A program made the translations under genes and the position numbers. A stretch of DNA of 64,000 nucleotides, taken from the NCBI GenBank assembly GCA_004297215.1, contig SCUM01000001.1, forward strand, positions 742,716-806,715, read 5' to 3'. Positions 31,278-57,836 of this stretch are shown here, in pieces. Source of the DNA: Patescibacteria group bacterium (GTDB lineage Bacteria; Patescibacteriota; Patescibacteriia; UBA9934; GWF2-40-263). The notes below the pieces were generated by a model. It did not search any database. It had not been told where the DNA came from and saw only the letters and a list, made by a program, of their open reading frames with translations. The stretch's first letter is position 1, and every line of letters begins with the position of its first letter.

Positions 31278-31294
31278 GCAGGTCGCATAGGCAG

Positions 31295-31370
31295 GAAGGC
31301 CTCAGGCCCCAGGCATGAAGGTTACACATGGCGCTCATGTTTTCCTTAGGCCTTTCCGCCTGAGGCCTTC
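31295..31370. terminator. Imperfect long hairpin between convergent ychF and the methyltransferase gene
   Basis: GAAGGCCTCAGGC ... GCCTGAGGCCTTC arms. The motif CATGAAGGCCTCAGGC recurs at 56050-56070. Confidence 0.5.
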
Positions 31371-32313
31371 ATGCCTTGCGCATCACCACGATCTCCCGCG
31401 CCACCTTTTGCCCCTTGCGTTCGTACAGGAACGTCCGTTCGATCGTGAATCCGATCGGAGCAAGGATGGTGTTCAAGGGGAGGCGCAGCTTCTGGGTGCC
31501 GCGCACGAAGGCCGGGAAGGCGATCGCGGCCCGCGCGCCCGGCTTCATCACGGCATGCACGCCGACGAGCATCTTTGCGTAGGACTGGCCCAAAACGGCC
31601 ATGTTTTTTTGGATCGTCTCAAGCGTTTCGCGGCCGGTCATCGGCGGGCCGAGATACGTTTCACCGGCCACGGCGTCGACGGGATCCTTGAGAATCGCCG
31701 CGAGGTCGGCCGCGTCACAAACGTACACCGACACGCGCGAGGCGCGAGCCTCCGGGAATTCCTTGCGCACCCATTCGAGGTTGCGTCCCGTGTCCGCAGT
31801 CGCCTTTTTCGAGATGTCCGAAGCGATGACCGCCTTGAACCCCATCAGCATCGCCTCCATCGGAACCGTCCCGCTCCCGCAGAACGGATCAAGGAGCACA
31901 AGGCTCGCTACCCCTCTCCTCTCGGAGGAGAGGGCATGGGTGAGGTCCGCGCCCGTGCCCGTGGCGAGGTTCACGAGCGTGCGCGCGAGCTTGGGCGGGA
32001 GCATCCCGCTTTTCGCGTCGCGGCTGGGGCGCCCGAAGTCACGTTTCGACCATGCCTCGAAATCCTGGACCGCCTCGGTGCGCCCGACGAGGATCCCGTC
32101 CTTGGTGGCAACGAGTACGATGTCGCCGGCCTTTGCCTGCGTGGTCACTGCCACGCTCGAGAGCGTGTCGCCCTTCATCGTGACGACACGCACCTTGCGT
32201 CCTTCGGCCTCGAGCGTGCGTTTCACGGTCATCCCGATCTTGCTTGCCTCGCCCTTGAGGTTGCCGAACAGGGGAGCGTTGCCGCCGTCATAGAGCGACA
32301 GGCCAAATGTCAT
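31361..32313 (-). CDS. Putative RNA (guanine-N2) methyltransferase, UPF0020/Trm11-RlmL-like
   Basis: Start MTFGLSLYDGG at 32313. Class I MTase motif I LLDPFCGSGT. The N-terminal region is consistent with a THUMP-associated family. The long ORF extension to 33168 runs through a repeat and is rejected. Confidence 0.7.
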
Positions 32314-32320
32314 TTTTTTC

Positions 32321-32410
32321 CCATCGTCATTGCGAGGAAGGAGCGAAGCGACTGACGAAGCAATCTCGTCGCTCGCGGGGGAACGGGATTGCTTCGCTTC
32401 GCTCGCAATG
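32321..32410. repeat. Palindromic element of the CATTGCGAG / GACGAAGCAATC family
   Basis: TCATTGCGAGGAAGGAGCGAAGCGACTGACGAAGCAATCTCGTCGC...GGGATTGCTTCGCTTCGCTCGCAATGA. Related copy at 49915-50040. Confidence 0.7.
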
Positions 32411-32727
32411 ACGGAACCGGCCTTGACGACTCCAGCCAACCTGTTTATTGCCTCTTTCGGACTCGGACCGGACTCGTCGCACACAAGAACCGTCTCCGAT
32501 GTCGCGACGGCCTTCGCGGACGGGTAAATGGCAAAAAATTCCGCCAATGACAGCGCAGGATTCGAGCCAAGGACGTAGAAGCGCATAAGCGTTTCAAAGT
32601 ATAGCAGATGTGGATAACCGGTGCTTGTGTCGTGGAATAGATGTGCATAGGACGACGGTTTGCTTCGGACAGTCCGAGTTACCCACATGGATTGGTATTT
32701 TTTCGCTAAAATGGCGACCAAAATGCT

Positions 32728-32756
32728 TTGACTGCCCATTCCAAAAAACGTAAAAT
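32728..32756 (+). promoter_or_regulatory. Consensus sigma70 promoter of surface locus 2 (near-leaderless)
   Basis: TTGACT, 17-nt spacer, TAAAAT. ATG at 32767 only about 4-6 nt after the predicted TSS. Shares AAAATGCTTTGAC with the promoter at 6030. Confidence 0.7.
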
Positions 32757-32766
32757 AGCTAAGAAT

Positions 32767-33426
32767 ATGGTCCGAGCCTTCATTTTTGCCGTAGGCGCTT
32801 GTGTTGGAACCCTGTTGCCCGGGATGGTTCTGGCCCAGTCCACCTCCACCAATTACATCCTGTGGGACACCGCGATCAATGCGGGAGGCGGAAGGACTAC
32901 GTCCACGAATTACATCAATTTCAACACGGTGGTGGACGTGGGGAGCGACCGTCTTTCCAGCACCAACTATCGCGCCTACCAGGGGTTCGAAGCGATCACC
33001 GAGGACCCGCGCATCACCATGAGCCTTACCCCCACAACCATCACCCTCTCGCCCAATCCGCTCACCACCGCGTCGGTGAGCACGGGCACCACCACGGCCA
33101 CCGTGAGCACGAACGCGGACTTCGGCTACACGCTCACGGCCACGGAGAACGACGCGTTCAAAAATCAAAGCGCCGATGAGCTCGCGGACGTCTCCGATGG
33201 CGCCGTCACTGCCGGGAGCGAGGAGTACGGCATCGCGGTGAGCGGTTCCGACGCCGCGTTCGGCGACGACCGCAGCGTTTCCGCGACCCCGCGCACGATC
33301 GCGAGCAAAAGCACCTGGGGAGCCGACCGCGCCACCGTCGTCACCGTGAAGGCCGCGATCGCGAGCGTCACGGACTCGGGGGAGTACTCGGGCACGCTCA
33401 CGTTCATCGCCACGGGGAATTATTGA
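32767..33426 (+). CDS. Secreted subunit-like protein (paralog of 6078), C-terminal ...TFIATGNY
   Basis: Start MVRAFIFAVGACVGTLLPGMVLAQS (signal peptide). The ORF-track start at 32728 lies upstream of the promoter. Three S-T-N-Y repeats, DVSDGAVTAGSEEYG, terminal TLTFIATGNY. Confidence 0.75.
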   Translation: MVRAFIFAVGACVGTLLPGMVLAQSTSTNYILWDTAINAGGGRTTSTNYINFNTVVDVGSDRLSSTNYRAYQGFEAITEDPRITMSLTPTTITLSPNPLTTASVSTGTTTATVSTNADFGYTLTATENDAFKNQSADELADVSDGAVTAGSEEYGIAVSGSDAAFGDDRSVSATPRTIASKSTWGADRATVVTVKAAIASVTDSGEYSGTLTFIATGNY

Positions 33427-33428
33427 AT

Positions 33429-33517
33429 AGTGCGTAGTGCGTAGTTGGTAGTACGTAGGAAAGAAAATCTACGCACTACGAACTACGTACTACGAACTAC
33501 GTACTACGCACTACGCA
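33429..33517. repeat. Hairpin built from ACTACGY heptamer arrays (left flank of the four-helix-bundle gene)
   Basis: AGTGCGTAGTGCGTAGTTGGTAGTACGTAGG..loop..CTACGCACTACGAACTACGTACTACGAACTACGTACTACGCACTACGCA. Confidence 0.8.
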
Positions 33518-33532
33518 AACATATGAACAACG

Positions 33533-33888
33533 AAAAAACGGGTTCGTACCAAGACTTGATCGTGTGGCAGAAGGCCATGGATCTTGTGGTCGGTGTTTAT
33601 GAGATTACAAAAGATTTTCCTACAGATGAGCGGTATGGGATCGTGAGTCAGATGAGACGTTCCGCCGTGTCTATCCCGTCGAACATTGCGGAGGGATATA
33701 GGCGAAAAAGCGAGGTGGATTTTCAAAGATTCCTCCGGATCGCCTATGGCTCAGCGTCTGAACTCGAAACACAGCTCCTCATTGCGCAACGGTTACGATA
33801 CGGGCCAGCAAGCTTTGCCCGAACGGATGCTCTCCTGGAAGAAATTCTGAAAATGTTAAACAAGATGACGGAAGGGAAGAGTTCGTAG
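33533..33888 (+). CDS. Four-helix-bundle protein (23S rRNA intervening-sequence protein family)
   Basis: MNNEKTGSYQDLIVWQKAMDLVVGVYEITKDFPTDERYGIVSQMRRSAVSIPSNIAEGYRRKS..FLRIAYGSASELETQLLIAQRL matches the TIGR02436-type family. The annotated upstream start lies inside the hairpin repeat. Confidence 0.8.
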
Positions 33889-33983
33889 TCCGTAGTCCGT
33901 AGTGCGTAGGAAAAACCTACGACTACGAACTACGGTCTAGGAAACCGGTCTACGTACTACGCACTACGTACTACGCACTCCGC
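33882..33983. repeat. Heptamer-array hairpin (right flank of the four-helix-bundle gene)
   Basis: TCGTAGTCCGTAGTCCGTAGTGCGTAGG..CTACGACTACGAACTACGG, followed by further CTACGTACTACGCACTACGTACTACGCAC units. Confidence 0.8.
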
Positions 33984-34100
33984 GCCCCCTAAACCACAAA
34001 GGTCGAGCACAACAGCGTATGGGTCGGGACGGGTGCCGAAGGGTTCGGCGCCGTCGACATCTATCAAGGCCCAGACGCCCATCTAATCCACGAACTTCAT

Positions 34101-35258
34101 ATGAACAAATTCCATTCATTCATCGCGAAAGTGACCATGCTCTCGCTGGTGGTCGCGCTGGTGGCGATCGTCTCCCCGGCGCAGGCGGCCACGATCACCT
34201 CCGCCAAGGACACGATGTCGCGCGTGCAGATCTCGACCCTCTCCAACCACGAGATCCTGTTCACGACCCCGACCGGCGTCGCGAGCGGCGCCACGATCAT
34301 CGTCACGTTCAACACCGACTTCTCGGTCGCGGCCGCGCTCGACTTCACGGATCTCGACCTCTCATCGGACTCGACACCGGATGCCGACTGTAGCGCGGAC
34401 GAAACGGAGGCGACCCTCGCGGCCGCCCCGTCGGGCGCCACGGTGGGCGCCGTGCGCACGTCCGGCACCGTCATCACCTTCACCAACGGCACGACCGTGA
34501 TCGCGGCCGGGTCGGAAGTGTGCATCCAGATCGGCACGAACGCCACGAACCAGACGACCGGCGTCCGACAGGTCACCAACGCCACGACGGACAGCTCGGC
34601 GAGCGCCAAGACCGTCGCTTTGAGCGGCACCTTCGGCGACTCCGGCACCATCGCGTTGGGCATCGTGGACGACGACACGGTAGCCATCTCGGCCACGGTC
34701 ACGTCCGCGCTCACCTTCGACCTCGATACGGTCACCACGGACACATGCAGCACCACCGAGACTGCGGCCGCCTACGCGGTCGCGCTCGGCACTATCACCA
34801 CCACCGACACCCGCGTGTCCGGCGGGACCGACTCGGTGGAATCCATCTGCGTAGACCTCAACACCAACGCCTCCGGGGGCGCCGTGATCACGGTCGTCTC
34901 GGCCAACGGGTCGAGCGGGCTCGTGAGCACCTCGGTGCCGGGCGACACCATCCCGAGCGCCGGAGCCACCATGGCCGACGGCACGGCCAACTACGGCATC
35001 TGCGTGGTGTCGGAAACGTCTTCCGCCGGCACGTTCGACGACGTGGCGCCGTTTGACAACGCCTCGTGCGCGGCCAACACCGAGACCAACGTGGTCGGCG
35101 GCCTCACCACCTCGGCGCAGACCATCCTCGACACCAACACCGACCCGATCGCCACCGGCCGCGCGCAGATCGCCGTGAACGCCGCCATCAGCGGAATCAC
35201 CCCGGCGCACAGCGACTACGCGGACACCCTCACGTTCATCGCGACGGGGACGTTCTAA
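34101..35258 (+). CDS. Secreted subunit-like protein 2 (homologous to the N-domain of the 7865 protein), C-terminal ...LTFIATGTF
   Basis: 385 aa. Signal peptide. ATITSAKDTM..NHEILFTTPTGV..ADCSADE..IGTNATNQ..SGTFGDSGTIALGI. Thr/Ser-rich. The terminal strand resembles those of 6078 and 32767. Confidence 0.75.
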   Translation: MNKFHSFIAKVTMLSLVVALVAIVSPAQAATITSAKDTMSRVQISTLSNHEILFTTPTGVASGATIIVTFNTDFSVAAALDFTDLDLSSDSTPDADCSADETEATLAAAPSGATVGAVRTSGTVITFTNGTTVIAAGSEVCIQIGTNATNQTTGVRQVTNATTDSSASAKTVALSGTFGDSGTIALGIVDDDTVAISATVTSALTFDLDTVTTDTCSTTETAAAYAVALGTITTTDTRVSGGTDSVESICVDLNTNASGGAVITVVSANGSSGLVSTSVPGDTIPSAGATMADGTANYGICVVSETSSAGTFDDVAPFDNASCAANTETNVVGGLTTSAQTILDTNTDPIATGRAQIAVNAAISGITPAHSDYADTLTFIATGTF

Positions 35259-35279
35259 CTCATCCGCAACGACATACAT

Positions 35280-36236
35280 ATGTGGAGGAAACTGTCATTT
35301 GCGGCCATGGTGGCGACCCTGCTCGCCCCGATCATGAACGTGCTTCCGGCCGCGGCGCTCACCGTGAGCCCGGTGGTGATCGAGCATGAGGCCGACCCCG
35401 GCGACGAGATCGTGGGGACCATCAAGCTGCACAACGAAGGGGCCCAGACGGAGACGTATTACCCGACCGTCCAGGACTTCGTGGGTTCCGACGAGTCCGG
35501 TACGCCCCAGTTCATCGGAACGAGCCCCGACCGCTCGCTCGTGGAGTGGGTGTCGTTCGGCCGCAGCTCCATCACCATCGATCCGGGCGACGGGGAGCTC
35601 GTGGTGTACACGCTCAAGGTGCCGAAGGATGCCGCCCCGGGCGGGTACTTCGGCGGCCTGCTGTTCTCGACCTCGCCGGCCAACGCCGCGTTCGGCGTGG
35701 GCACCGTGGGCGTCACGGGCCCGCTCCTGCTTGTGCGCGTGTCCGGCAACGTGGTCGAACGGGCGAGCGTCGCCTCGTTCGCGTCGAGCCAGGACTCGGG
35801 CACCTCGCTCCCGGTGGACTTCAAGCTGCGCGTGCAAAACGAAGGCACGGTGCACGTGAAGCCCACGGGCGTGATCCGCATCACCAACCTGTTCGGCGGC
35901 GTATCCGCCGTCATTCCGGTGAACGCGGGCGGCGGCAACGTGCTGCCTGGCGGTGCGCGCGTCTACTCCGAGAGCTGGGTCAAGTCCGAGCTTCCGGACA
36001 ACGCGAGCGAGCTCATGAAGGAATGGAAGAACTTCGGGTTCGGCCCGTACACCGCCACCCTTATCCTGAACTACGGGGAAGGGAAGCAGGTGATGAGCGC
36101 CTCCGACTCCTTCTGGGTGATGCCGTGGATGCTCATGGTGCTGTTCGTGATCCTCATCGCGGTCGCATTGCTCCTGCTCGCCCAGTACAACAAGTGGGTG
36201 ATCGCAAGGGCGATGATGAGCCAGAAGAAACGGTAG
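35280..36236 (+). CDS. Membrane-anchored PapD-like/DUF916-like beta-sandwich protein (paralog of 6985)
   Basis: 318 aa. Signal peptide, LTVSPVVIEHEADPGDEIVGTIKLHNEGAQTETYYPTVQDF, C-terminal SDSFWVMPW + TM helix + basic tail (QKKR). Confidence 0.75.
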   Translation: MWRKLSFAAMVATLLAPIMNVLPAAALTVSPVVIEHEADPGDEIVGTIKLHNEGAQTETYYPTVQDFVGSDESGTPQFIGTSPDRSLVEWVSFGRSSITIDPGDGELVVYTLKVPKDAAPGGYFGGLLFSTSPANAAFGVGTVGVTGPLLLVRVSGNVVERASVASFASSQDSGTSLPVDFKLRVQNEGTVHVKPTGVIRITNLFGGVSAVIPVNAGGGNVLPGGARVYSESWVKSELPDNASELMKEWKNFGFGPYTATLILNYGEGKQVMSASDSFWVMPWMLMVLFVILIAVALLLLAQYNKWVIARAMMSQKKR

Positions 36237-36257
36237 CTCCTCAGACCCCACCATGCC

Positions 36258-36334
36258 TCCCCTTTCCAAGGGGAGGGTAGCGGAAGCGAGCTATCTCCCC
36301 CTTGGAAAGGGGGAGCATGAGGGGGTCTGCGGCG
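36258..36334. repeat. Cluster of palindromic repeats upstream of giant gene 3
   Basis: CCTCCCCTTTCCAAGGGGAGGG, then CTCCCCCTTGGAAAGGGGGAG + CATGAGGGGGTCTGCGG (parts 1 and 3 of the composite element). Confidence 0.8.
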
Positions 36335-36341
36335 TGGGAGC

Positions 36342-39300
36342 GTGAGTTCCCACGTCCGCCCCGTGTCACGAGCGTCTCGTGGCATGAGGCGGGTGGATTC
36401 CACCCGAACTTTGCACGCCCCCATGCTTGTCGTGCAGCCAGACAAATCCCTCATCCGAAGAGTAAGCGCGAGCGAGCCGTTCGCGCTCGTTGTGGTTTTC
36501 CTCATGATGATTTCCGGGTTCAGCGTGTGGATGCTGCTGTCGCGCGCGCCCGGGGCGGTCGCGACGCTCGACACGCCGATGCTCATCACCTATCAGGGGA
36601 AGCTCACCAACGCGAGCCGCATCACGGTGCCGGACTCGGCGCTCAACATGAAGTTCGCGATCTACACCTCGAGCTCCGGCGCCTCCGGCTGCGTGTGGAG
36701 CGCGGGCGACGACCCGGGCGACGGCGCGGACACTACCTTCTCGCAATCAAGCGACTGTCCGAGCCATGTCCCGTCGACCGCGATTTCCGTGACGCCCAGC
36801 GAAGGGGTGGTCACGGTGATCCTCGGCGCCTCCCCGCAAAACGCCATCCCCGATGCGCTGTTCGACGACAACTCCGCCCTGTACCTCGGCGTCACCGTGG
36901 GGGCTGACAGCGAAATGACTCCGAGGATCCGCCTCACCGCCACGCCCTACGCCTTCCAGGCCGGCGACGCGGACCTGCTCGACGGCCTCGATTCCACGGC
37001 GTTCGCCACCACGAGCACCGCGTTCGTGAACAACGGCAATTCCTTCGCCGCCGCCGGGGTGATCGGCACCAACGACGCGAACTCGCTCTCGTTTGAGACG
37101 AACAACGTTACCTATCTCACCATCGCCTCCGGCGGCGGCTTCACGCTTCCCGTGGACACCGACTGGACGCTCACGGGCGGCACGAACGGGTTGAGCCTCG
37201 ACGGCACCACCTTCTCCGTGGACGCCGCCAACAACCGCATCGGCATCGGCACCGCGGCCCCGAGCCAGACCCTCACGGTGGTCGGCACCGGCGACGTGTC
37301 CGGCCACGTGGCCATCGGCGACGACGCCGCGATCAACGACGCGTCGCTCCTCTATGGCGCATCGACCATCACGAACGTCCTTACCGTCTCCGAGGAGATG
37401 ACGGACGGCGCCTCGGACTACGTGGACGGCATCACCAACCACATCCTGTACAACCCGTCCACCGACGCCTCAACCACGTGGGTCGACGGCATGGACACGG
37501 TCGTGGAGACGGCCGCGGCAAACGCGCAGGACATCGACGTGATCGATGCCGGATATTTCGGGACCACCCATAACGGCACGGGCGACATCGTGGGCTGGCT
37601 CAACGGCGTCTCGGGGGTCGTCAGCACGACGGCGACGAGCGGGAGTTCTATTTCGAACAACGCCGGGTATTTCGCGGTCACCGCGATCGACCCCCGCGCC
37701 ACCGGTACCGAGGACAACTACGGCTTGTGGTCGGCCGTGAGCCGCACCGGCGCCACGGGCGGCACCATCAACACCTACGGCGTGTACGTGCAAAGCAACG
37801 GCATGGACGCTGCCGGCGCCGGTACCTCCACCCTCTACGGCCTCTATATAGAGAGCATGACAGGGGCCGACACCAACTACGCCATCTACTCCGCCGGCGG
37901 CCAGAGCTACCACGCGGGGAACTTCGGGATCGGCGACGCCTCTCCCGCCTCCCTCCTCACCGTGGGCTCGGGCGACCTGTTCCAGGTGACCTCCGCGGGG
38001 AGGATCATCACGACCGTGACCCCCACGGCCGACTCGGGGACCACCAACAACGCGGCGTTCGTGATGCTCACCACCCCGGCGGACACCACCGGCACGAACG
38101 TGCACAACGCCCTGCGCGTGGACGGGAACGTGGGCAACGCCACCGGAGGCACCAACACCGTCAATCTCCTCGAGTTCGACGCTCTGACCGGCGACGCCCA
38201 AGTGACCCTGCGCGGCATCGACATCGGCGCGCTCACCGGCACCGCCGCCACGGAGGACGCCATCCTGGTCGGAAGCGGTTGGGACTGCACGTTCAAGGTG
38301 GGCTCCACCTGCGTGATCGATGGCTCCGGCACGCTCGGTTCCAGCGGCAACGCCTTCGTGAACGGGGGCAACTCCTTCGGCGCCAGCGCCATCCTCGGGA
38401 CGAACGACGCCAACTCCCTTTCGTTTGAGACCAACAACACCACCTACCTCACCATCGCCTCCGGCGGAGGATTCACCCTCCCCGTGGACACCGACTGGAC
38501 GCTCACGGGCGGGGAGAACGGGTTCTCCATCGACGGCACCACCTTCTCGGTGGATGGCTCGGCCAACCGCGTGGGCATCGGCGACGCCACCCCCGACGCG
38601 CTGCTCGACGTGGGCGGGGACGCGTTCATCGACAACGACCTCGTGGTGGGTGCCGCGACCTCGACCACCGAGACGCTCGCGAACGCCGGGTTCAGCTTGA
38701 GCAACGACGACCTATTCGTCTCTGACTCCATCGGCGCCGAGGGCAACGTCTACACCGACGGCTCCTTCATCGCGGGTGCCACCCTCACGCTCGCCGACTC
38801 CGGCATCACCGAGTCGGGTGCCTTCACCTTCACCTCGCAGCTCGCCGCGGGCGGCACTACTTCTTCCGCCTTCAACCTTGTCTCGAGCAACGACCTGGGC
38901 GCATCCGACGAGGTGCTCCAGATCGGCGACTCGGCCGCCACCTTCATGACCGTGCTCGGGAACGGCAGCGTGGGGATCGGGACGGTGAGTCCGTCAGTGA
39001 TTTTAGATATCGCGAAAGTGGGTTCGGGAAGTACCGCGGCCCAAGTGACCATTTCCGGGTATGCGAATGACGCTTCCAGCGGGGCATACATGAACTGGCA
39101 AAAATCACGCGGAACGTCCGTCGGTTCTTTGGTCACGACCGATAGCGGAGATTATCTCGGGGTGATGGGATGGGCGGGCGTTACTTCTTCCAACACGAGC
39201 AGTTATGGCGCGAGGATCCTCGTGCAGCAAGATGCCGCGGCATCAGCGACGCAAGTACCCGGCGCCTTCATCATCAGGACGAGCGATGCCAGCGCCGAGT

Positions 39301-42300
39301 CTGAAAGATTGCGCATCACGAGTTCCGGCAACGTCGGCATCGGCGATACCACCCCCGCCTCGCTGTTCACCGTGGGCGACGGAGATGATTTCCAGGTATC
39401 CTCGACCGGTAACCTCACCTCTCCGGCCGACACCACATGGACGATTGGTGGCGGCGTGAACGGCCTCAACTTCGATTCGGACACCCTTTCGATCGACGCT
39501 ACGAACAATTTCGTGGGAATCGGCACGAGCACCCCGGACTATCTCCTCCAGGCCGAGGCCAGCTCCGCGTCCGTTCAAGCCGCCGTGGTCACGAACACGA
39601 ACACGGCCGGCGCAGGGGTGGTCATGGCGCAGGCGGGAAACGTGACGGCGCGCTATGCGGCGTACGGGACGACGGCGGCGATTAACAACTTCGCGTCCGG
39701 CACGGCGGCCTTCTTCGGAAGCGGCGCCGTCACCTCCGTCCAGATGGTCACGCCGGACGTGGCCGCCCCGTTGGCGTTCGGATACAACGATTTCGTCTCC
39801 ACGAGCCGCGAATTCCTCCGCCTGACGGACGGGACGGCCGGCGCCGTGTTCAACGAGGACAGCCTCGACCGGGATTTCCGCGCCGAGACCGACGGGAACG
39901 TCAACGGCATCTTCCTCGACGCTTCCGCCGAGACCATCGACCTGGTGGGCGGCTCGGGCTCCACGGGCTGCTCCATCAGCTCGGCGGGCGCCCTGGTGTG
40001 CACCGCAGGGGTAGGAGGATGGACCGACGGGGGGACCGACGTCACCCTCACCACCTCCACCGACAACGTGGGCATCGGCGGTGCGTCGCTCGGCAAGCTC
40101 TCCGTGGACGGGGATACCGACGAGATCCAGCTCCTGGTGCAGGGAAACTCCAGCCAGACGGCCAACTACATGACGGTGGAGACGAGCGCCGGCACCGACC
40201 TGTTCCAGATTGACACTTCCGGGAACGTCATCCTCACCAACGACCTTGGCGTGGGCGCCGCCGCCTCCTCCGAGACGCTCGCGAACACGGGTTTCTCGCC
40301 GAATGGCGACGACCTGTTCGTGGCGGACTCGATCGGCGCGGAAGGCAACGTCTACACCGACGGCTCCTTCATCGCCGGCGCCACCCTCACGCTCGCGGAC
40401 TCCGGCATCACCGAATCCGGCGCCTTCATTTTCACCTCCCAGCTCGCTTCCGGCGGCACCACCTCCTCCGCCTTCAACCTCGTCTCGAGCAATGACCTGG
40501 GTGCCGCCGACGAGCTCCTGCAGATCGGGGACTCGGCCGGGACGTTCATGACGTTCCTTGGGAACGGCAACGTCGGGATCGGGACCGTAAACCCCTCGGC
40601 CCCGCTCACGGTGGTCGGGGGAGCGGACGTCAATCTCGCCGCGGACGACAACTTCGTCATCGACGGGAGCACCAACCAGCGCACCATCACGCTCGGAGCC
40701 ATGCGCTTCTTGCACACGCCGGCCATCCAGGGGACGCGCGCCATCAACCTGGTGGTGGACGCCAACAACCAGTCCGACACCTCCGGCATCGTGGTGGATT
40801 ACGCCGCCACCAACTTCGACAGCGACCAGAACGGCACGGCGCTCAAGCTCTCGGTGGATTCCACGAGCGCGACCGGCGGGGAAGTGCGGGCGATCGACGT
40901 CACGAAGACGGCCGGCGGCACCCTCGACGTGTACGCGGTGCAAGCCGGGGTGGGCGTGACCCCCCTGCGCCAGGTCTCGGGCACGTTCGGGAACGTGGAC
41001 ACGGCGCTCATCGAGGCCGGCGGATTCACGGCCGTCACGTCGAGCTTCAACTCCACCGGCACCGACGTGCAGATGTTCGTGGCCAACGGCGACCGCGTGT
41101 ACGTGGGCGCGGACACCACCTTCGGCGCCGTCTCCTTCGTGCTCGCCACCGTCGCCTCCGGCGCCGGAGTGAAGCCAACCTTCGAGTTTTCCACGGGCGC
41201 CGGATGGACGAGCTTCGGTCCCAACGACGGGACCAACGGGATGCGCACCAACGGGAGCATCAGTTGGGACGCCGCCGACCTCGCGACCTGGGCCACCCAG
41301 TCCGTGAACGCCACCACCAAGTACTGGATCCGCATCACGCGCACGCAGGCCGCGCTTACCACGCCGCCCACCGAGGACATCGTGCAATACGCGGCCGCGA
41401 CCAATTACACCTGGGACGTGAACGGCGACCTCGCGATCCGCGACCTCGCGGTCAACGGCGGCGACCTCACCACGAGCACTTCCACCTTCAACCTGGCCGC
41501 GTCGGTCACGACGCTCGCGATGGCCGGCGGCTCCGGCTCCACGGGCTGCACGATTGACTCCTCGGGGAACCTGGCGTGTTCCGGCACGGTGTCAGGGAGC
41601 GGAGCCGTCGGGTTCGTGAACGGGGGCAACTCCTTCGGCGCCAGCGCCATCCTCGGGACGAACGACGCGAACTCGCTCTCGTTTGAGACCAATAACACCA
41701 CCTACCTCACCATCGCCTCCGGCGGCGGGTTCACGCTTCCCGTGGACACCGACTGGACCCTCACGGGCGGCACGAACGGGTTGAGCTTCGACGGCACCAC
41801 CTTCTCCGTGGACGCCACCAACAACCGCATCGGCATCGGCACGGCGGCGCCGACGACGGAGCTTGATATTGTCGGTTCGGGGACCGGCTACAACTTCAAC
41901 GCGATCCGCAGCACGAACGGCAACATCGGCTATTTCTCCCAGAACGACACGGCCGGCACCGCCGCGACATCGCGCATGTGGTTGATTGCTGACGGGGTTT
42001 CGGGCAACAGCGTGCAAGGGAATCTCTGGGCGCTCTCCTCCTCCTATACGGATGCCTTCTGGGGAAGCTACGCGGCGGGCAAGGTCTTGCTTGCGGCTGC
42101 TGGTGAGGCGAGTCGGAAGGACCTGTTGATCGCGGCGGTCGGTTCCGGGACTGGCGGCAAGATCGCATTCCATGTCGGTGGATTGAACGAGGCGCCGTTA
42201 GCCGCCAACGAACGGGCGCAAATCGGCGCGACTGAGTTCGTCGTCAACGACAGCTCCAATAATTACGACTTCCGCGTGGAGGGCGACACCAACGCCAACC

Positions 42301-45300
42301 TCCTGTTCCTCGACGCATCCGCCGACCGCGTTGGCATCGGAGATGCCACCCCCGACCATTTCGTGGACATCGAGGCTGGTTCGCTCGCGAGCGCCGTGAA
42401 CGCGCTTTCCGTGACCGGCACGCTCTCTTCGACGGCCGCGGCCCAGACGGGCGTCTCGGTAGACATCACGGGAGCCGGTAGCGACTCGAATCTCCATGCC
42501 GGCTTGGCAGTCAATCTGGGAGCCGGATATACGGGGGCCGGAGCCTCGGCGGCGATGTATTACACGAACTATTCCGCGGGTACGGCAACCACGCCTGTCG
42601 GGAACGGGAACGGGAATTACGGCGTGTCAGGTTTCGCCTTGGGAACGACGACCGGGACGAACGTCAGCGTGCTCGGTTCCGCAGGCTACGGCGACGTCAA
42701 CTACGGCGTCATGGGGAAGGCCCAGGTCGCCAAGACGAGCGCGAAGAACGTCGCGGTCGCCGGCGTGGCGAATGCCGCCGGCGGTTCCGGCATGACGCTC
42801 CTCGGCGGGTATTTCGGCATCAATTCGACCGCCGGAGACCCGACGCTCGCAAGCGCCGCCCTCATCGCGGACAACGGCGACGTCTCCGCCCCCATCTTCC
42901 TCGCCCGCGACAACGGCACGGTCGTGCTCACGGTCGCCGATGGCGGCTCCGTCGGCATCGGCGACAGCACGCCTGCCTCATTGTTCACCGTGGGCGACGG
43001 GGACGACTTCCAGGTGGGCTCCGACGGCGATCTCGACAGCATCAAGAGCGTCGCGTATTCCTGGCCCTCGGCAAACGCCTCGGGCGTGCTCACCAACAAC
43101 GGCTCCGGCGTCCTTTCCTGGTCCTCGGCCGGCTCCGGCGACATCACGGCGGTCGGCTCCATGACCTCGGGCGACGCCTTTGCCGACGCCACGGCCGACG
43201 ACGACTGGCTGGGCCTCGGCGCCGCGGCCGGCCGCATCGAGTTCGATGACGTGACGAACGACGAGGTGAACGTGCTCGACGCGTACCTCGGCGTCGGCAC
43301 GTCCACTCCGGCCGGGATCTTCCACGTGTCGGCGGCCGACCCGCGCACGCGCGTCACGCACACCTCCACCACCGGGTACAGCGTGTTCGACCTCTACGAG
43401 AACGCCACGGCCCAAGGCTCCCTCACCACCTACGGCTCCGCGGTGGGCGGGGCGATGGCGAACGATTTCGTGATCTCGGGCCGCGGCACCTCGGACCTCG
43501 TGTTCGCGAGCGCCGACGATACCGAGCGCATGCGCATCGCCGCCGGCGGCAACGTGGGCGTGGGGGACGCCACTCCGGACGGGTTCTTCTCGGTGGGCAC
43601 CACTTCCCAGCTCCAGGTCACGAGCGCCGGCAACCTTTCCACTTCCGGCACCGTCACCTCCACGAGTTCCTCGGCCTCCGCGCTCGTGGTCGACACCACC
43701 ACGCTCGTGGTGGATGCGAGCGCCAACCGCGTGGGCGTGGGTACCGCCTCGCCCGCCGCCGACCTGCACGTGTCGGCGGCCGATACGCGCATGCGCGTCA
43801 CCCACACGTCGACCACCGGGTACGGACAGCTCGATTTCTACGAGAGCGGCACCGTCCAGGGCGACATCGTGGCGTATGGCTCCGGCGTGGGCGGGGCGCT
43901 TGAGAACGATTTCGTGATCTCGAGCCGCGGCACCTCGGACCTGGTCCTTGCGAGCAGCGCGGACACCGAGCGCCTGCGCATCACCGCCGCCGGCGCGTTC
44001 TCGCTCCCCGCGGACACCGACTGGACCCTCACGGGCGGGGTGAACGGCCTATCCTTCGACGGCACCACCTTCTCGGTGGACGCCACCAACAACCGCATCG
44101 GCATCGGCGACGCCAGCCCGTCCGCGCTGCTCACCGTGGGCGACGGCGACAAGTTCAAGGTCAACGCCGAGGGCGACATCACCTCCGCGTTCACGACCCT
44201 CGACGGTTCGACGACGGCGAACGGCGCGGGTTCCAACTCGACCACGCTCATCCTTACGAGCGCCACGAACTTCGATGTCGGGAATTACGTCCAGGTGGCC
44301 GCGACCGCCTGCGCCGCCAATCCTTGTTTTGCCAAGATCACGGCCATCGTGACCAATACGTTGACCGTCAGCCCTGCCATCTCCTGGAGCGACCTCGACG
44401 TCGTGACCGAGGTCCACGTCCCCGAGATCGGCGGCCTCGACCTCACCCAGGCGCTCGCCAACCGCTACGGCCGCGGCTACTTCATCGACGGCATCGTGGC
44501 CGGCAACGGCTCCACCTACATCACCGACGGCTCGATCGAGAGCGTCGGCGCGCTTCGCATCAACGCCTCCGGCAACCAGGCCGTGACCTTCGGCACCGGC
44601 ACGGTCACGGTCAACGGCCCGCTCGTGACCGCGGCCGGCAACGACCTCAACGTGGACTCCGGCACCCTGTTTGTCGACTCTACCAACAACCGCGTGGGCA
44701 TCGGCACGGCCACCCCCGGCTACCTGCTCGACGTTGCCGGCGCCATGCGCGTGGGCGTGGCCGGCACCGACGGCCAGATCCGCCTGTACTCCGAGCAGGG
44801 GGCCACGGATTACGAGGTGGTGATCAACCCCAACGCCGCCATGACCCAGAACGTCACCTACACCCTCCCGGCCGACGACGGCACTTCAAGCCAGGTGCTC
44901 ACCACCGACGGCTCCGGCGGCTTGAGCTGGGCCACCGCCGGCGGCTCGGGTGCCAACGTCACACTCTCGAACCTCACCACCGTTGCCCTCAACGCCGACC
45001 TGCTTCCGTCCGCGTCGCCGTCCACCTCCTCGAGCAGCAGGACGACCACGGTGGCGGAAACGACCACCTCCACGGGGACGTATTCGGACATGGCGGTTCC
45101 CGCGGATGGGTTGCCGGTCTTAAGTCATACGGACGCATCCGGTTACCTGCGGGTCAGCAAGTGCAGCGACGCCAACTGCTCTTCCGGTTCGATTACCAAC
45201 ACTATCGTGGATTCCAGTTCAACGTTCCAATACACTTCCGTCGCCATTTCCGCCGACGGGTATCCGGTGATCAGCTATTACGACAGCACGAACCTGGATC

Positions 45301-52483: not shown

Positions 52484-52486
52484 GAT

Positions 52487-53437
52487 ATGCCCGAACAAGA
52501 ATGGGTCACCCAGGTCACGGCAGATGAGAGCGGGGAATGGTCCGCGCAGGTCGTTTCGGACGTGCCCTCGGGCATGCACACGATCACGGTCCTCGGCGAG
52601 GACGGCACCCGCTCCGACTCGCTCCTGTACGTGGACCGGGAAACGACCGAGGGCGAGGGCCGGCTCCTGTCCGGCGGGCTGTTCGTTTCCCGCACCGACG
52701 CGGTGGTGCCGCCCGCCTTCGCGCTGTCCATGTTCGTGTTCCTCACCGTCATCGTGCTGCTCGCGATCAACGGCGTGCGCCTCGGGCGCAAGACCGATAA
52801 GGCGGAGCGGCGTACGAGGGAAACGGCCCGACATCATCACGGTCGCAACGCCATGGTCGTATGCGTGATCGGCGTGGCCGCGTCGTTCTTCGTGGGCGTG
52901 CTCGTGAACCAGAGCGTGGGGGTGTTCGACCGGTTCTTTCCGGCGCCCGTCGCGCGAACGGTGCGCCTGTCGCTTTCCGGGGCAGTGATCGATCCCATCA
53001 CCTCGAGGCCGGTCGCGGGCGTGGACGTCGCCGCGGGGGACACGGCCGTGCGCACCGACGACGCCGGCCGCTTCGCCTTCTCTGACGTCGACGCCGAGCA
53101 GGGCATGCGCCTCACGCATCCCGCGCTCGCGCGCGCCCTGCGCGTGCGTTTTCCCAAGAGCATCGTCGAGGCCGACCGCTCGCGCGTGAGCGCCTTCCCG
53201 GTGTACGTCCCGTTCGACGCGGCCATGTACAACGCGCTCATCTACGCCGTGGACGCCGATGCCAGGGCGGGCCGCGGCATCTGGAGCCCGGGCGACCTGG
53301 GGGACCAGGAACTCGACCTCGTCGAGGTCACCGCGGACGCCGCCAAAGCAACGGTGGACGCGATCGTCGGCAACGACGGGAACAGCGCGACGTACCGATT
53401 GAGGAAGGAAGGGGACGGATGGAACGTCGTTCCCTAG
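52487..53437 (+). CDS. Continuation: Ig-like domain remainder + TM, basic loop, TM, carboxypeptidase-regulatory-like domain (membrane-anchor module)
   Basis: Same frame as the upstream ORF, separated by TAG + one codon. EWVTQVTADESGEWSAQVVSDVPSGMHTITVLGEDG completes an Ig-like fold. TM helices FALSMFVFLTVIVLLAINGV and AMVVCVIGVAASFFVGVLV. Then SGAVIDPITSRPVAGVDVAAGDTAVRTDDAGRFAF. Confidence 0.6.
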   Translation: MPEQEWVTQVTADESGEWSAQVVSDVPSGMHTITVLGEDGTRSDSLLYVDRETTEGEGRLLSGGLFVSRTDAVVPPAFALSMFVFLTVIVLLAINGVRLGRKTDKAERRTRETARHHHGRNAMVVCVIGVAASFFVGVLVNQSVGVFDRFFPAPVARTVRLSLSGAVIDPITSRPVAGVDVAAGDTAVRTDDAGRFAFSDVDAEQGMRLTHPALARALRVRFPKSIVEADRSRVSAFPVYVPFDAAMYNALIYAVDADARAGRGIWSPGDLGDQELDLVEVTADAAKATVDAIVGNDGNSATYRLRKEGDGWNVVP

Positions 53438-54096: not shown

Positions 54097-54177
54097 TGCT
54101 ACGAACCAACGAACGGCTACGAAACTACTAAAATACCTTTTGTTCGTAGTTTCGTAGCCCGTTCGAAGGTTCGTAAC
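54097..54177. repeat. CTACGAA-heptamer hairpin between rpsF and ssb
   Basis: GCTACGAACCAACGAACGGCTACGAAACTAC..loop..GTTCGTAGTTTCGTAGCCCGTTCGAAGGTTCGTAAC. Confidence 0.75.
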
Positions 54178-54184
54178 ACCACCT

Positions 54185-54685: not shown

Positions 54686-54686
54686 A

Positions 54687-54755
54687 GTGCGTAGGTGGTA
54701 GTACGTAGTGCGTAGGATTTATTTTCTACGCACTACTGACTACGCACTACGTACT
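54687..54755. repeat. ACTACGY-heptamer hairpin between ssb and rpsR
   Basis: AGTGCGTAGGTGGTAGTACGTAGTGCGTAGG..loop..TACGCACTACTGACTACGCACTACGTACT, nearly identical to the arm at 33429. Confidence 0.8.
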
Positions 54756-55009: not shown

Positions 55010-56059
55010 ATGCGCCGCGTCCAGGACATCGCTTCTGAACGACAACGATTGAACGACCTCATCCGGTCGTTCTTTCGGTCTAGGGGCTATGCCGAAGTGG
55101 AAACGCCCACGCTGGTCGCGAGCCCAGACCTCGCGCCGAACTTTACCTATTTCGAGACGACGCTCGTCGCCCCGGGAGAGAAGCCGCGGCAGGGGGCGCT
55201 CATCACGAGCCCCGAGTTTTCCATGAAGAAGCTGCTCGGGCAGGGAATGGAAAAGATCTTCACGCTCGCTCGCGTCTTCCGCAACGACGAGGACCTGGGC
55301 GGCACCCCTTCGACAGGCTCAGGGCAGGTGCACAACCCGGAGTTCACCATGCTTGAGTGGTACAAGCAGGGCGCGGACTATCACGAGATGATGGATGAGA
55401 CGGAAGCGTTGGTGCGCGAGGCTTGCGCGGCGTTCTCAAAGCCAGCTACCTCCCCCTTGGAAAGGGGGGAGCCTGCCTGCCGGCAGGCAGGCATGAGGGG
55501 GTCTGCGGGCGCCTTCAGGCGCCTACGCGTCCGCGACCTGTTGCTCGACACCGCCGGCGTGGATCTCGACACGGCCTCCGCTGCCGACCTCGCCGAGGCC
55601 TGCGACCGGCTCGGCCTGCACCGCGACGCGGCAGACACCGAGAGCGACCTGTTCTACCGCCTGTTCCTCGCGAAAGCGGAACCGTCGATCGGCACGGTCC
55701 CCACGTTCGTCTACGACTATCCGCTCTGCCAGGCGGCGCTTGCGGCAAAGACGGCGGACGGGAAATACGCGCAGCGCGTCGAGCTCTATGTCGACGGGGT
55801 CGAACTCGCGAACGGCTTCACGGAACTCACGGACGCGACCGAACAACGCGCCCGATTCGAGGCGGAACGCGCCGAGCGCGTCGCGTCCGGGAAGAGCGCG
55901 TTCCCCGTTGACGAGGAACTGCTCGCGCTGCTACCATCCGTCCGTTCTCCGACGTACGGCAACGCGCTCGGCATCGACCGGCTGCACATGCTGTGCATCG
56001 GCACCAAGGAAATCGGGGATGTCCTGCTGTTCCCGGCAAGTAAATTATTTAAGGCATGA
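55010..56059 (+). CDS. epmA: EF-P lysine-34 beta-lysyl ligase EpmA (PoxA/GenX, class II LysRS paralog)
   Basis: HNPEFTMLEWY, VELANGFTELTDATEQRARFE, GNALGIDRLHMLC match PoxA. About 350 aa with no anticodon-binding domain. Immediately upstream of efp. Confidence 0.85.
   Translation: MRRVQDIASERQRLNDLIRSFFRSRGYAEVETPTLVASPDLAPNFTYFETTLVAPGEKPRQGALITSPEFSMKKLLGQGMEKIFTLARVFRNDEDLGGTPSTGSGQVHNPEFTMLEWYKQGADYHEMMDETEALVREACAAFSKPATSPLERGEPACRQAGMRGSAGAFRRLRVRDLLLDTAGVDLDTASAADLAEACDRLGLHRDAADTESDLFYRLFLAKAEPSIGTVPTFVYDYPLCQAALAAKTADGKYAQRVELYVDGVELANGFTELTDATEQRARFEAERAERVASGKSAFPVDEELLALLPSVRSPTYGNALGIDRLHMLCIGTKEIGDVLLFPASKLFKA
55450..55508. repeat. Full composite palindromic repeat inserted in frame inside epmA
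   Basis: CTCCCCCTTGGAAAGGGGGGAG + CCTGCCTGCCGGCAGGCAGG + CATGAGGGGGTCTGCGG, encoding ..TSPLERGEPACRQAGMRGSAG... Confidence 0.85.
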
Positions 56060-56692: not shown

Positions 56693-56749
56693 TTCGGCTC
56701 TAGGCCGAATCATCCTGAAGCCCATCAGGGCTGAAGGATCTCGTGAAAG

Positions 56750-56777
56750 AAAAAACCGGCCCGTGAGGGTCGGTTTC
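56750..56777 (-). terminator. Hairpin terminator downstream of the aminotransferase gene
   Basis: AACCGGCC-CGTGAG-GGTCGGTT with a T-run on the minus strand. Same hairpin sequence family as 58153-58180. Confidence 0.6.
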
Positions 56778-56780
56778 GCG

Positions 56781-57710: not shown

Positions 57711-57836
57711 GCGTCCTCCCGTTACTTGGATTGCATTGGATTGTGAAAGAAGGACGCACCGTAACGGAAAAAGCGCATTCTGTCAATCTCCTATGGGTGG
57801 CACAGAAACGAACAAAGATTCATCCACTTCCGTTCA

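Follow-up and report, generated by a model that had tools for sequence, protein, structure and literature searches.

We read the 47-kb region at positions 6022–53437 of the window (the whole 64-kb stretch of DNA analyzed here, from an Uhrbacteria-like lineage of the Parcubacteria group) as one usher-less, chaperone-assisted surface-fibre family represented by two modules that diverged long ago and are built differently, together with three giant genes, an interpretation to which we assign a probability of about 0.6. The two surface-fibre gene clusters and the three giants make up ~5% of the tiny genome of this CPR bacterium, and the fibre family has remote relatives in the Pam pili of CPR bacteria and in the Firmicutes WxL/WxLIP clusters. 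The genes flanking the region are polA, holA, rmuC, ychF, rpsF, and ssb. All window features located by coordinates below are on the + strand.

Architecture and conservation of the two loci

Profile HMMs resolved locus 1 in the order cap (g6078), chaperone (g6985), anchor (g7865), and giants, without a free pilin. Locus 2 had the order cap (g32767), pilin (g34101), chaperone (g35280), and giant (g36342), with no protein that begins with the pilin N-domain and linker. Both loci taken together contained one pilin, in locus 2, and one anchor, in locus 1.

A preliminary description of this DNA had presented locus 2 as a paralogous copy of locus 1 with extra genes. The homology was upheld for all three small pairs: g32767 and g6078 shared 33% identity over 141 aa (BLAST E = 5e-13, z = 13 against 300 shuffles), g34101 and the N-terminus of g7865 shared 38% over 196 aa (E = 6e-27, z = 20), and g35280 and g6985 shared 32% over 313 aa (E = 1e-34, z = 44), so that similarity exceeded composition in the pairwise-alignment check throughout (Smith-Waterman z of 13–44 vs shuffles). 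The notion of a copy with extras fared less well, as the gene contents differ, identity is only 32–38%, and the assembly genes of the two loci had no detectable DNA similarity. A recent whole-locus duplication was ruled out by the same identities, by the lack of shared DNA among the assembly genes, and by the separate orthologs of each type found elsewhere.

In locus-2-type clusters of other Parcubacteria, the pilin was immediately followed by the chaperone in 71/73 loci. The locus-1 type (cap-chaperone-anchor-giant, without pilin) was also found in L080, at the same polA-holA-rmuC position, and in L083, after polA. L054 and L057 contained both types merged in the order chaperone, anchor, pilin, chaperone, cap, chaperone, giant. 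Each architecture is thus conserved separately, with some genomes merging both, and the split is therefore ancient. The two modules may be complementary rather than alternative, though the pilin-less locus-1 type, being conserved on its own, need not work together with locus 2.

Profile scans detected no usher-like ORF in either locus, the LP.[TSA]G motif was absent from all 29 ORFs examined, and no sortase occurred among the proteins scanned. With neither LPXTG, sortase, nor usher found in these scans, sortase pili and chaperone-usher pili were both ruled out. Rfam returned no family in the window besides tRNAs. The region also contained g27576 (27576–29969, 797 aa), a polytopic membrane protein with ~11 helices and C-terminal TPR repeats, whose homologs adjoin clusters in L001, L026, L031, L032, L033, L045, L081, and L082.

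Promoters

The extended promoter motif previously noted for the two loci was recovered, and the 64 kb contained AAAATGCTTTGACY at two positions only, 6022 and 32720. Allowing ≤2 mismatches, 0.18 matches were expected in the window, and two were reached in 0/100 shuffles. The locus 1 promoter (6022–6058) consisted of AAAATGCTTTGACC at 6022–6035, in which TTGACC at 6030–6035 is the −35 box, a 17-nt spacer, and a −10 box TATAAT at 6053–6058. The locus 2 promoter (32720–32756) consisted of AAAATGCTTTGACT at 32720–32733 with the −35 box TTGACT at 32728–32733, a 17-nt spacer, and a −10 box TAAAAT at 32751–32756. TTGACY was accordingly the −35 box at both promoters, 17 nt from TATAAT or TAAAAT. Position 32728, at which the preliminary description began the locus, is this −35 box, and the ATG of g32767 is at 32767, in agreement with that description. 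The orthologous promoter in L080 read AAATGCATTGACT, 17 nt, TATACT, and L001 kept the motif at 9134–9144, just upstream of the ortholog. The common motif would argue, if anything, for co-regulation of the two loci. There was no support for a structured leader RNA ahead of the pilin gene g34101 (z = −0.79).

Probable cap subunits

Genes g6078 (6078–6983, 301 aa) and g32767 (32767–33426, 219 aa) are predicted to encode acceptor-only, cap- or tip-like subunits without a donor linker. Each had a signal peptide and an acceptor C-terminal domain; g6078 had three S-x-[NS]-[YF] strand motifs and a ~50-aa insert, and g32767 three S-T-N-Y motifs. Against the NCBIfam models with curated cut-offs of 240 bits for the PamT equivalog (NF058579) and 55 bits for Pam_pilin_C (NF058581), g6078 scored 56 bits (E = 3.2e-15) and 21 bits (E = 2.7e-4), and g32767 scored 52 bits (E = 5.6e-14) and 35 bits (E = 1.2e-8), respectively. 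PamT was matched by 77/87 members of the cap family (best E = 2.8e-22) and Pam_pilin_C by 72/87 (best E = 2e-12), and by these scores the family is homologous to PamT but outside its equivalog. The Pfam WxL domain and WxL motifs were found in 0/87 cap-family members, and the window proteins had no WxL domain either.

The cap-family HMM matched g6078 in two pieces, and orthologs of this gene were present in L080 (50%), L083, L054, and L057. The C-domain of g32767 was homologous to that of the pilin (hhalign Prob 96.7, E = 3.4e-10), and the C-terminal strand of the subunits read TF[IV]ATGN[FY]. The cap family comprised 3756 cluster representatives at E ≤ 1e-3, and some family members carried N-terminal Laminin_G_3 or CBM6 lectin-type domains, as in tip adhesins.

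Candidate pilin and anchor

Our candidate for a polymerizing shaft pilin was g34101 (34101–35258, 385 aa), with a signal peptide, an N-domain (30–187), a linker (188–210), and a C-domain (211–385). Its AF2 model (pLDDT 88.5) contained two beta-sandwich domains and a low-confidence linker. Conservation across the family was highest in the linker (0.80) and the C-terminal strand (0.88), compared with 0.51 in the N-domain. There were >539 homologs, all unnamed, and 177 relatives were confirmed among genome contigs. The pilin family had no match to the NCBIfam Pam models at E ≤ 1 and was tied to them solely via the hhalign match between the cap and pilin C-domains given above. Fold searches with the pilin model returned only generic Ig-like adhesins and pilins.

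The much larger g7865 (7865–11329, 1154 aa) began with a signal peptide and the pilin N-domain with the linker DDTIGVTATV (aa 1–190; pattern DD-T-x-x-V-T-A-T-V), continued through a G/P spacer and three FN3 domains, and had predicted membrane helices at ~aa 838–856 and 1013–1051 as well as CarboxypepD_reg domains. The pilin HMM matched positions 9–200 only. The acceptor domain was absent, which makes g7865 a candidate base or anchor, PamR-like by logic. Full-length orthologs occurred in L054, L057, L080, and L083.

Chaperone-like proteins

The products of g6985 (6985–7863, 292 aa) and g35280 (35280–36236, 318 aa) both began with a signal peptide, followed by a pair of Ig-like domains and, at the C-terminus, a membrane helix, identified by hydropathy in g6985. 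By sequence and model they would be membrane-anchored, chaperone-like proteins of the WxLIP/PamC-D kind. The chaperone HMM matched g6985 at E = 4e-78. Both missed the threshold for Pfam PF06030 (WxLIP_PGBD; E = 0.058 for g6985 and 0.17 for g35280), which 18/52 members of the chaperone family matched at E ≤ 1e-3; no DUF3324 match was reported. Foldseek with the AF2 model of g35280 (pLDDT 91) placed the Enterococcus faecium WxLIP structures 9i1y and 9i25 first (E = 5e-12), then RbmA, and after it CfaA, CsuC, PapD, Caf1M, and FimC (E = 1e-9 to 1e-7). The chaperone-family profile also matched EfmWxLIP1 in the PDB (E = 1e-4), and E. faecium WxLIP was the closest solved relative of these proteins. 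An ortholog of g6985 was found in L080 (38%), in the locus-1-type cluster only. None was found among the pilin-linked chaperones, from all of which g6985 was about equally distant.

Giants

Giant 1 (g11489; 11489–19933, 2814 aa) had an N-terminal hydrophobic anchor or long signal peptide, a fibre-like head (PNIIPYQGRL...), mosaic modules, a conserved C-terminal module, and a Pro/Glu-rich tail. It matched no Pfam family, and its sole PHROG match, phrog_5906, has no function assigned there. Giant 2 (g20107; 20107–27555, 2482 aa) was a tandem paralog of giant 1, with DNA identity of 82% in the head (514 nt) and of 89% in a 1270-nt stretch further in, and differed from its L001 ortholog by module indels. 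Giant 3 (g36342; 36342–49241, 4299 aa) had a head, internal duplicated modules, the common C-terminal module, and a Pro/Glu-rich tail. As previously proposed, its head, middle modules, and C-terminal module were common to giants 1 and 2, in 6–7 blocks each, with 32–72% aa identity and DNA identity that reached 74% across 1117 nt and 96% in a 49-nt stretch. An array of 13–14 repeats of 51 aa with CxxxxC (45152–47115) was absent from the other giants and would be expected to fold as a beta-propeller.

The DNA blocks common to the giants were 70–96% identical, while the assembly genes shared none. Between L001 and the window, the pilus genes were collinear at ~90% and the giants were altered by module indels; the head of giant 3 matched L001 at 85% DNA identity as far as 37021 and was no longer collinear with it beyond. 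Sequence exchange is limited to the giants, sparing the assembly genes.

A same-strand ORF of ≥1000 aa was present within 10 kb in 48/78 loci and absent from 30/78, and giants directly followed the anchor or chaperone in the window, L080, L083, L065, and L072. None of the pilin, cap, and chaperone profiles matched the giants, whose mature N-termini did not resemble the donor linker and which had no recognizable C-terminal cell-wall or membrane anchor. The sole sequence link to fibres was a marginal match to the Bdellovibrio fibre protein PDB 8ojn (E = 0.066). The giants are probably fibres that bind hosts or surfaces, evolve fast, and recombine; their link to the modules is genetic, and they are not demonstrably subunits of the pilus. 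Because they, and not the assembly genes, are recombining and variable, they are the natural candidates for host-range determinants. The earlier suggestion of variant surface structures accordingly suits these mosaics, with their block exchange and module indels, better than it suits the modules, which may be complementary and not alternative.

Accessory genes of locus 2

Locus 2 had been described as carrying a four-helix-bundle cassette, a dockerin protein, and an Ig/FN3 protein. The four-helix-bundle gene was confirmed as a member of the 23S rRNA IVS protein family (PF05635, E = 1.4e-39; TIGR02436) and probably starts at ATG 33523 (gene 33523–33888). It lay in an inserted cassette (33427–33985) between hairpins at ~33427–33518 (−53.6 kcal/mol, z = −10.4) and ~33882–33943 (−46.8 kcal/mol, z = −4.4). 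The cassette was absent between the orthologous genes of the closest relative, L001, and is outside the fibre system. A DGR/Avd role for the gene was rejected, with Avd NF033474 at 19.5 bits (E = 9.5e-4) vs a cut-off of 80 and PF05635 far stronger; a search for DGR TR/VR repeats around it found the flanking hairpins only.

The dockerin assignment of g49243 (49243–49908, 221 aa), a secreted protein with a putative dockerin-like C-terminus, was doubtful: the C-terminal likeness was weak, and Dockerin_1 scored 10.3 bits (E = 0.82) vs a 22.9-bit cut-off. The gene was conserved in L079 (86% nt identity), and no homolog was found among the 78 genome loci. The supposed Ig/FN3 protein, g49910, had one FN3-like stretch (E = 1.2e-3), homologous to an FN3 domain of g7865. 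This gene, whose real start may be TTG 50078, and g52487 (together 49910–53437; 857 aa and 316 aa) were in the same reading frame with a conserved TAG at 52481–52483 between them. The TAG-GAT-ATG junction was identical in L079 (83% nt identity), which ruled out a sequencing error or recent pseudogene. Together with the two membrane helices and CarboxypepD_reg of g52487, the pair resembled the FN3/membrane/CarboxypepD_reg part of g7865.

Comparison with known systems

The Pam pilus, first described in 2026 in Saccharimonadia and Microgenomatia, comprises in Ca. Mycosynbacter amalyticus (Saccharimonadia, CPR) the pilins PamA/B/E, the tip PamT, the chaperones PamC/D, and the anchor PamR; its filaments, shown by cryo-EM, are described as assembled by donor-strand exchange, and PamA and PamB are among its most abundant proteins (bioRxiv 10.64898/2026.03.03.709456). 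The linker and C-terminal part are most conserved in PamA and PamB; PamC and PamD are chaperones of the PapD/FimC type that retain a transmembrane helix at the C-terminus; and PamR, a membrane-anchored terminator, donates a strand at its N-terminus and has FnIII domains and, C-terminally, a membrane helix (bioRxiv 10.64898/2026.03.03.709456). The window system shared with it the CPR host, the lack of both usher and sortase, and a Sec signal peptide on every part. Also common to the two were a tip-like subunit of one domain that matches the models for PamT and Pam_pilin_C, a pilin of two domains most conserved in linker and C-domain, two-Ig-domain chaperones with a C-terminal membrane helix (g6985 and g35280), and a large "tail fibre-like" protein in the neighborhood. 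By domain logic, g7865, a membrane-anchored FN3 protein with a putative donor element, would be a counterpart of the Pam anchor. In contrast to Pam, scores in the window were far below the curated cut-offs, the pilin family lacked any Pam match, and the host belongs to the Parcubacteria group, a lineage unnamed in the preprint. The components here were divided between two differently organized transcription units, of which one was pilin-less, with three embedded giants (2.5–4.3 thousand aa) and no nearby ATP synthase genes, and the ~1150-aa anchor with its full pilin N-domain differed from the small, RbmA-like PamR.

WxL/Csc clusters encode small and large WxL proteins, with at least two proteins bearing a WxL domain (a double Trp-x-Leu motif), and WxLIP, which consists of DUF916 (PF06030), DUF3324, and a membrane helix; they have been described as cell-wall-bound complexes, not filaments (PMC10599100, PMC1534035). 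The window chaperones appeared to follow the WxLIP plan, with WxLIP as the best structural and sequence match, and both systems had a small subunit, a larger one with the same C-terminal domain, and one membrane-anchored Ig-pair protein. Unlike WxL clusters, the window had no WxL domain or motifs and no LPXTG partners, and its C-terminal strand was T-F-[IV]-A-T-G-N-[FY]; the formation of a chain is indicated by its donor-only anchor together with the conserved linker.

Chaperone-usher pili (Pap/Fim, Csu, CFA/I, Caf1) resembled the window system in the modeled two-domain chaperone fold and in the tip/shaft/terminator logic. In many of their pilins, as in the window subunits, the C-terminal strand contains an aromatic residue that is conserved. 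They differed in that the window had neither usher nor outer membrane, its chaperones were membrane-anchored, and its pilins had an extra N-domain with the donor strand between domains, not N-terminal. Compared by sequence, the giants were similar to mosaic trimeric fibre adhesins and tail fibres (Bdellovibrio, 8ojn) in being long, Gly/Ala/Ser/Thr-rich, and modular with common heads and tails and variable middles, but the 8ojn match was only marginal, no Pfam family was found, and the PHROG match had no assigned function.

Proposed assembly and alternative explanations

From domain logic and the Pam preprint we infer donor-strand assembly for both modules, including polymerization and the order of cap, shaft, and anchor. 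Sec would export all subunits. A subunit's incomplete C-terminal Ig-like domain would first be bound by a membrane-anchored chaperone (g6985 or g35280), which would then give way to the conserved linker strand of the following subunit through donor-strand exchange. As acceptor-only proteins, g6078 and g32767 would be caps or tips. By domain logic, g34101 is a putative polymerizing shaft because it is both donor and acceptor, and g7865 a putative base or anchor because it is donor-only and ends in membrane helices. Locus 1 would then form a short, capped FN3 stalk anchored in the membrane, and locus 2 a polymerizing pilus. The two are probably connected, g7865 serving as the anchor for filaments of g34101, and are probably co-regulated via the common promoter element.

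If instead the two loci were redundant, alternative versions of one surface structure, expressed alternately for antigenicity or host range, it would make sense that promoter, cap, chaperone, and giant(s) are present separately in each, and that the mosaic, fast-evolving giants differ in modules such as the 51-aa CxxxxC array of giant 3. We consider this unlikely, since the contents are not equivalent (one pilin and one anchor in total, in different loci), the divergence is ancient with each type conserved separately, the same extended promoter motif suggests common rather than exclusive control, and neither an invertible element, a recombinase, nor a phase-variable repeat was seen at either promoter. 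Rather improbable, in our estimate, is a WxL-type, non-polymerizing complex, in which the WxLIP-like protein tethers a small and a large subunit by strand insertion with no filament or exchange. The chaperone-like proteins indeed have WxLIP as their best match in structure and sequence alike, the commonest WxL cluster (a single WxLIP plus a pair of WxL proteins, typically a small one and a large one) mirrors cap, pilin, and chaperone, and AF2 predicts a WxLIP strand inserted into WxL. Yet no member had the Pfam WxL domain or WxL motifs, the caps matched Pam models instead, and the Pam homologs are filaments by cryo-EM. A conserved pilin linker together with a donor-only anchor makes sense for a chain and not for a 1:1 complex.

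The remaining alternative takes the giants as the real functional unit and the small genes as accessories that export, fold, or dock them. The direct succession of giants after the anchor or chaperone in the window and in L080, L083, L065, and L072, the ORFs of ≥1000 aa linked in 48/78 loci, and the lack of a recognizable C-terminal anchor on the giants are consistent with such a dependence. It is very improbable given that 30/78 loci manage without such an ORF within 10 kb, that giants match no pilin, cap, or chaperone profile, and that their mature N-termini are unlike the donor linker. We therefore favor two diverged modules of one fibre family with genetically linked giants.

Implications

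Few bacteria are as abundant or as poorly understood as Parcubacteria, and no member of the lineage of this window is known to be in culture. Our results suggest that the Pam-type pilus extends to Parcubacteria in strongly diverged form. This form is very common, with the 3756 cap-family cluster representatives and 177 confirmed pilin genome loci noted above. The chaperone also ties these systems to the WxL/WxLIP proteins of Gram-positive gut bacteria, a link absent from the Pam preprint. The region yields concrete, if inferred, role assignments for cap, shaft, anchor, and chaperones. More tentatively, Pam pili, the Parcubacteria family, and WxL/Csc might constitute one ancient usher-less superfamily built on a membrane-anchored chaperone plus donor strand, with two giant-coupled modules here. 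If so, the Parcubacteria modules would be a pilin-less capped stalk and a polymerizing pilus, physically or functionally coupled to giant adhesins, and this bacterium would devote ~5% of its genome to a host-recognition apparatus.

Genomic setting

The window has a G+C content of ~65%. Among named relatives, Candidatus Uhrbacteria bacterium RIFCSPHIGHO2_01_FULL_63_20 is the closest (88–89% amino acid identity in the pilus genes); NCBI taxonomy assigns Uhrbacteria to the Parcubacteria group. Both surface loci lie inside a housekeeping region with the order polA, holA, rmuC, two tRNAs, locus 1, tRNA-Ala, ychF, locus 2, rpsF, and ssb, followed by a class II tRNA-synthetase-like gene and, at greater distance, ftsK. 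Together they extend over 6022–53437 (47 kb, ~5% of the contig). Genes are named here by start position.

Gene g27576 (27576–29969) encodes a polytopic membrane protein with ~11 helices and C-terminal TPR repeats, and its matches to known families were limited to the TPR part. Homologs are repeated neighbors of these clusters in several genomes, often adjoining ychF, and a role in modifying or assembling surface proteins is possible. A 1.4-kb spacer (31278–32719) separates ychF from the locus 2 promoter; its G+C is reduced, and no gene was identified there with confidence. From 31967 onward this spacer is 84% identical to the closest relative, L001, and an ORF at 31315–32355 has weak homologs 3′ of ychF in L026 and L031. 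Downstream, ~4 kb (56685–60687) including a PLP-dependent Cys/Met-metabolism-like gene and an AstE/AspA-like gene is represented by only ~330 nt in a related metagenome contig (L079), an indel between close relatives.

Paralogy and promoters of the two loci

The preliminary description read locus 2 as a copy of locus 1 with extra accessory genes. Its pairwise homologies held: g32767 is a paralog of g6078 (33% over 141 aa, BLAST E 5e-13, z 13 vs 300 shuffles), g34101 is homologous to the N-terminus of g7865 (38% over 196 aa, E 6e-27, z 20 vs 300 shuffles), and g35280 is a paralog of g6985 (32% over 313 aa, E 1e-34, z 44 vs 300 shuffles). The three giant proteins likewise share their head, blocks in the middle part, and a module at the C-terminus. 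The assembly genes of the two loci have no similarity at the DNA level. Rather than original and copy, loci 1 and 2 are ancient, differently built modules of a single family.

The 14-nt motif AAAATGCTTTGACY, correctly described as common to both promoters, occurs in the window only at 6022 and 32720 (0.18 matches expected by chance with ≤2 mismatches). At both sites it includes a -35 box, from which a 17-nt spacer leads to the -10 box of the promoter. Position 32728 is accordingly a -35 box and not an ORF start; the gene starts at ATG 32767. The extended motif at locus 2 is retained in L001, and the related locus L080 has AAATGCATTGAC at its locus 1 despite proteins only 38–57% identical to those of the window. 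This retention suggests a common regulatory element for loci 1 and 2. The ~110 nt 5′ of the pilin start codon (33990–34100) are ~97% identical to L001, compared with ~90% in adjacent coding DNA, and could serve the pilin gene as a leader or an internal promoter; the predicted RNA fold was no better than shuffles (z -0.79).

Assembly proteins

The Pam models originate from a 2026 preprint in which two filaments were solved from Ca. Mycosynbacter amalyticus, a Saccharimonadia parasite. There, PamA and PamB start with a beta-sandwich, continue into a linker strand, which the next subunit receives, and end in an Ig-like C-domain that is truncated. The tip, PamT, consists of one domain, and PamC and PamD are PapD-like chaperones with a retained C-terminal membrane helix. 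PamR, which combines FnIII with a membrane helix, was proposed to terminate and anchor the filament, and a tail-fiber-like protein is a conserved neighbor (bioRxiv 10.64898/2026.03.03.709456). WxL, DUF916, Parcubacteria, and Uhrbacteria are not mentioned in that preprint.

In the window, g6078 and g32767 had weak but specific NCBIfam matches to "CPR-type pilus protein PamT" and "Pam pilus system pilin subunit". The g34101 model (pLDDT 88.5) has two beta-sandwich domains connected by a linker, and its most conserved parts are the linker (aa 188–210, mean top-residue frequency 0.80) and last strand (aa 370–385, 0.88), with 0.51 for the N-domain. The pilin C-domain is also found in the cap family (hhalign Prob 96.7, E 3.4e-10), which has no linker. 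Conversely, in g7865 the N-domain and linker of the pilin are present and its C-domain is absent; C-terminal to the linker it carries FN3 domains (three) as well as membrane helices and CarboxypepD_reg domains. Caps with only an acceptor domain number exactly two in the window, as do the chaperones; there is one pilin that is both donor and acceptor and one membrane protein that is a donor alone.

The chaperone-like g6985 and g35280 are built alike: behind a signal peptide lie two Ig-like domains, and a membrane helix follows at the C-terminus. The best structural match of the g35280 model (pLDDT 91) was E. faecium WxLIP (9i1y, 9i25, E 5e-12), then RbmA, then the chaperone-usher chaperones CfaA, CsuC, PapD, Caf1M, and FimC. 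EfmWxLIP1 was also the best match of the family profile among PDB sequences (E 1e-4), and 18/52 family members matched Pfam WxLIP_PGBD/DUF916.

Relatives in other genomes

A genome scan with the pilin alignment gave 177 confirmed relatives and returned 78 distinct loci. With generic or doubtfully labeled bins set aside, all named records were Patescibacteria (Uhr-, Nomura-, and Taylorbacteria, Paceibacterota, Minisyncoccia). A chaperone gene was immediately 3′ of the pilin in 71/73 loci, and a C-domain protein was usually upstream, with an N-terminal part so variable that total protein length ranged from 177 to >1200 aa. The cap family had 3756 cluster representatives (E≤1e-3), some with Laminin_G_3 or CBM6 domains; sampled members matched PamT (77/87) and Pam_pilin_C (72/87), all under curated cut-offs.

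The locus 1 architecture occurs elsewhere without any pilin. L080 follows polA-holA-rmuC as in the window, with a cap (~300 aa), chaperone, anchor (~1150 aa), and giant in that order, and its chaperone, at 38% identity, was the sole clear g6985 ortholog found. The Uhrbacteria genome L083 repeats this gene order. L054 and L057 have a single cluster of chaperone, anchor, pilin, chaperone, g6078-like cap, chaperone, and giant. In L001 the two loci are already adjacent.

Giant proteins

At the N-terminus of the giants is a hydrophobic segment, perhaps a long signal peptide with VFA/AVA at its end; the proteins also have a fiber-like head, variable modules, a common C-terminal module, and a Pro/Glu-rich tail. 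No family could be assigned, and we treat them as linked, variable adhesins and not as pilus subunits. Giants 1 (11489) and 2 (20107) are 89% identical at the DNA level over 1270 nt and 82% over 514 nt; giant 3 (36342) is 74% identical to the locus 1 giants over 1117 nt, with short stretches of 88–96%. Relative to L001 the pilus genes are collinear at ~90%, and the giants have module indels and lost collinearity. By these comparisons, sequence exchange is limited to the giants. Only giant 3 has 13–14 tandem 51-aa repeats (45152–47115, aa 2936–3606; consensus ...VDSTGDVGQYTSIAV.ADGYPVISYYD.TNGDLKVLKCGNAACSSGN), each with a CxxxxC pair. These had no Pfam match, look like beta-propeller blades, and may form the part that binds the ligand. 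The two arms of a 59-nt inverted repeat (95% identical) lie in the giant 1–2 spacer (20039–20097) and in the tRNA-synthetase-like gene (55445–55502).

Accessory genes and repeats

The four-helix-bundle gene is a member of the 23S rRNA IVS protein family (PF05635, E 1.4e-39) and not an Avd gene (19.5 bits against a cut-off of 80). Its cassette (33427–33985, ~560 nt) is a hairpin-ORF-hairpin insertion that separates the cap gene from the pilin gene and is absent at the orthologous L001 site; the hairpins, of CGTAGTN-type short repeats, are very stable (z -10.4, at -53.6 kcal/mol, and z -4.4). The cassette may be a mobile, IVS-like element within an operon. A single hairpin copy without the ORF lies just 3′ of ssb (54686–54755), and L079 has a copy.

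The dockerin assignment of g49243 kept weak support (E 0.82). Genes g49910 and g52487, jointly like the FN3/membrane/CarboxypepD_reg portion of g7865, are in the same frame with only TAG-GAT-ATG (52481–52489) between them. This junction is conserved, since it is identical in L079 at 83% nucleotide identity. The break seems to fall within an Ig-like domain and could reflect a split gene, translational coupling, read-through, or a trans-completed domain. REP-like palindromes with CATTGCGAG are at 32328–32410 and 49928–50040 (4 copies vs 0.78 expected), and the element 3′ of g49243 is missing in L079. It translates as the odd g49910 N-terminus ("FFRHCERNEATS..."), which makes the annotated start (49910) probably wrong, with TTG 50078 a candidate. 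Other repeats were a pair at 3581–3712 and 61788–61918 (83% identical, internally palindromic) and a palindrome between rpsF and ssb (54097–54178).

Proposed assembly

Given the established homology relations, domain composition, membrane helices, conservation pattern, and gene linkage, we propose that components would be exported by Sec, that the chaperone would cap the incomplete C-domain of a subunit, that donor-strand exchange would proceed via the conserved linker, and that the order would be cap, shaft, anchor. The product of locus 1 would be an FN3 stalk with a cap and a membrane anchor, and that of locus 2 a polymerizing pilus, which g7865 may anchor. We put the probability that the region belongs to this superfamily at about 0.8; the full mechanistic model is somewhat better than an even bet.

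This kind of system is already known from the Pam pili (2026 preprint), from WxL clusters, and from chaperone-usher pili with their donor-strand logic. New relative to the preprint and the other literature searched are the strongly diverged Parcubacteria version, under curated thresholds; the two module types, one pilin-less; the giant anchor, which is donor-only; the tight linkage to giants that recombine; and the link of the chaperone-like proteins to WxLIP by both sequence and structure.
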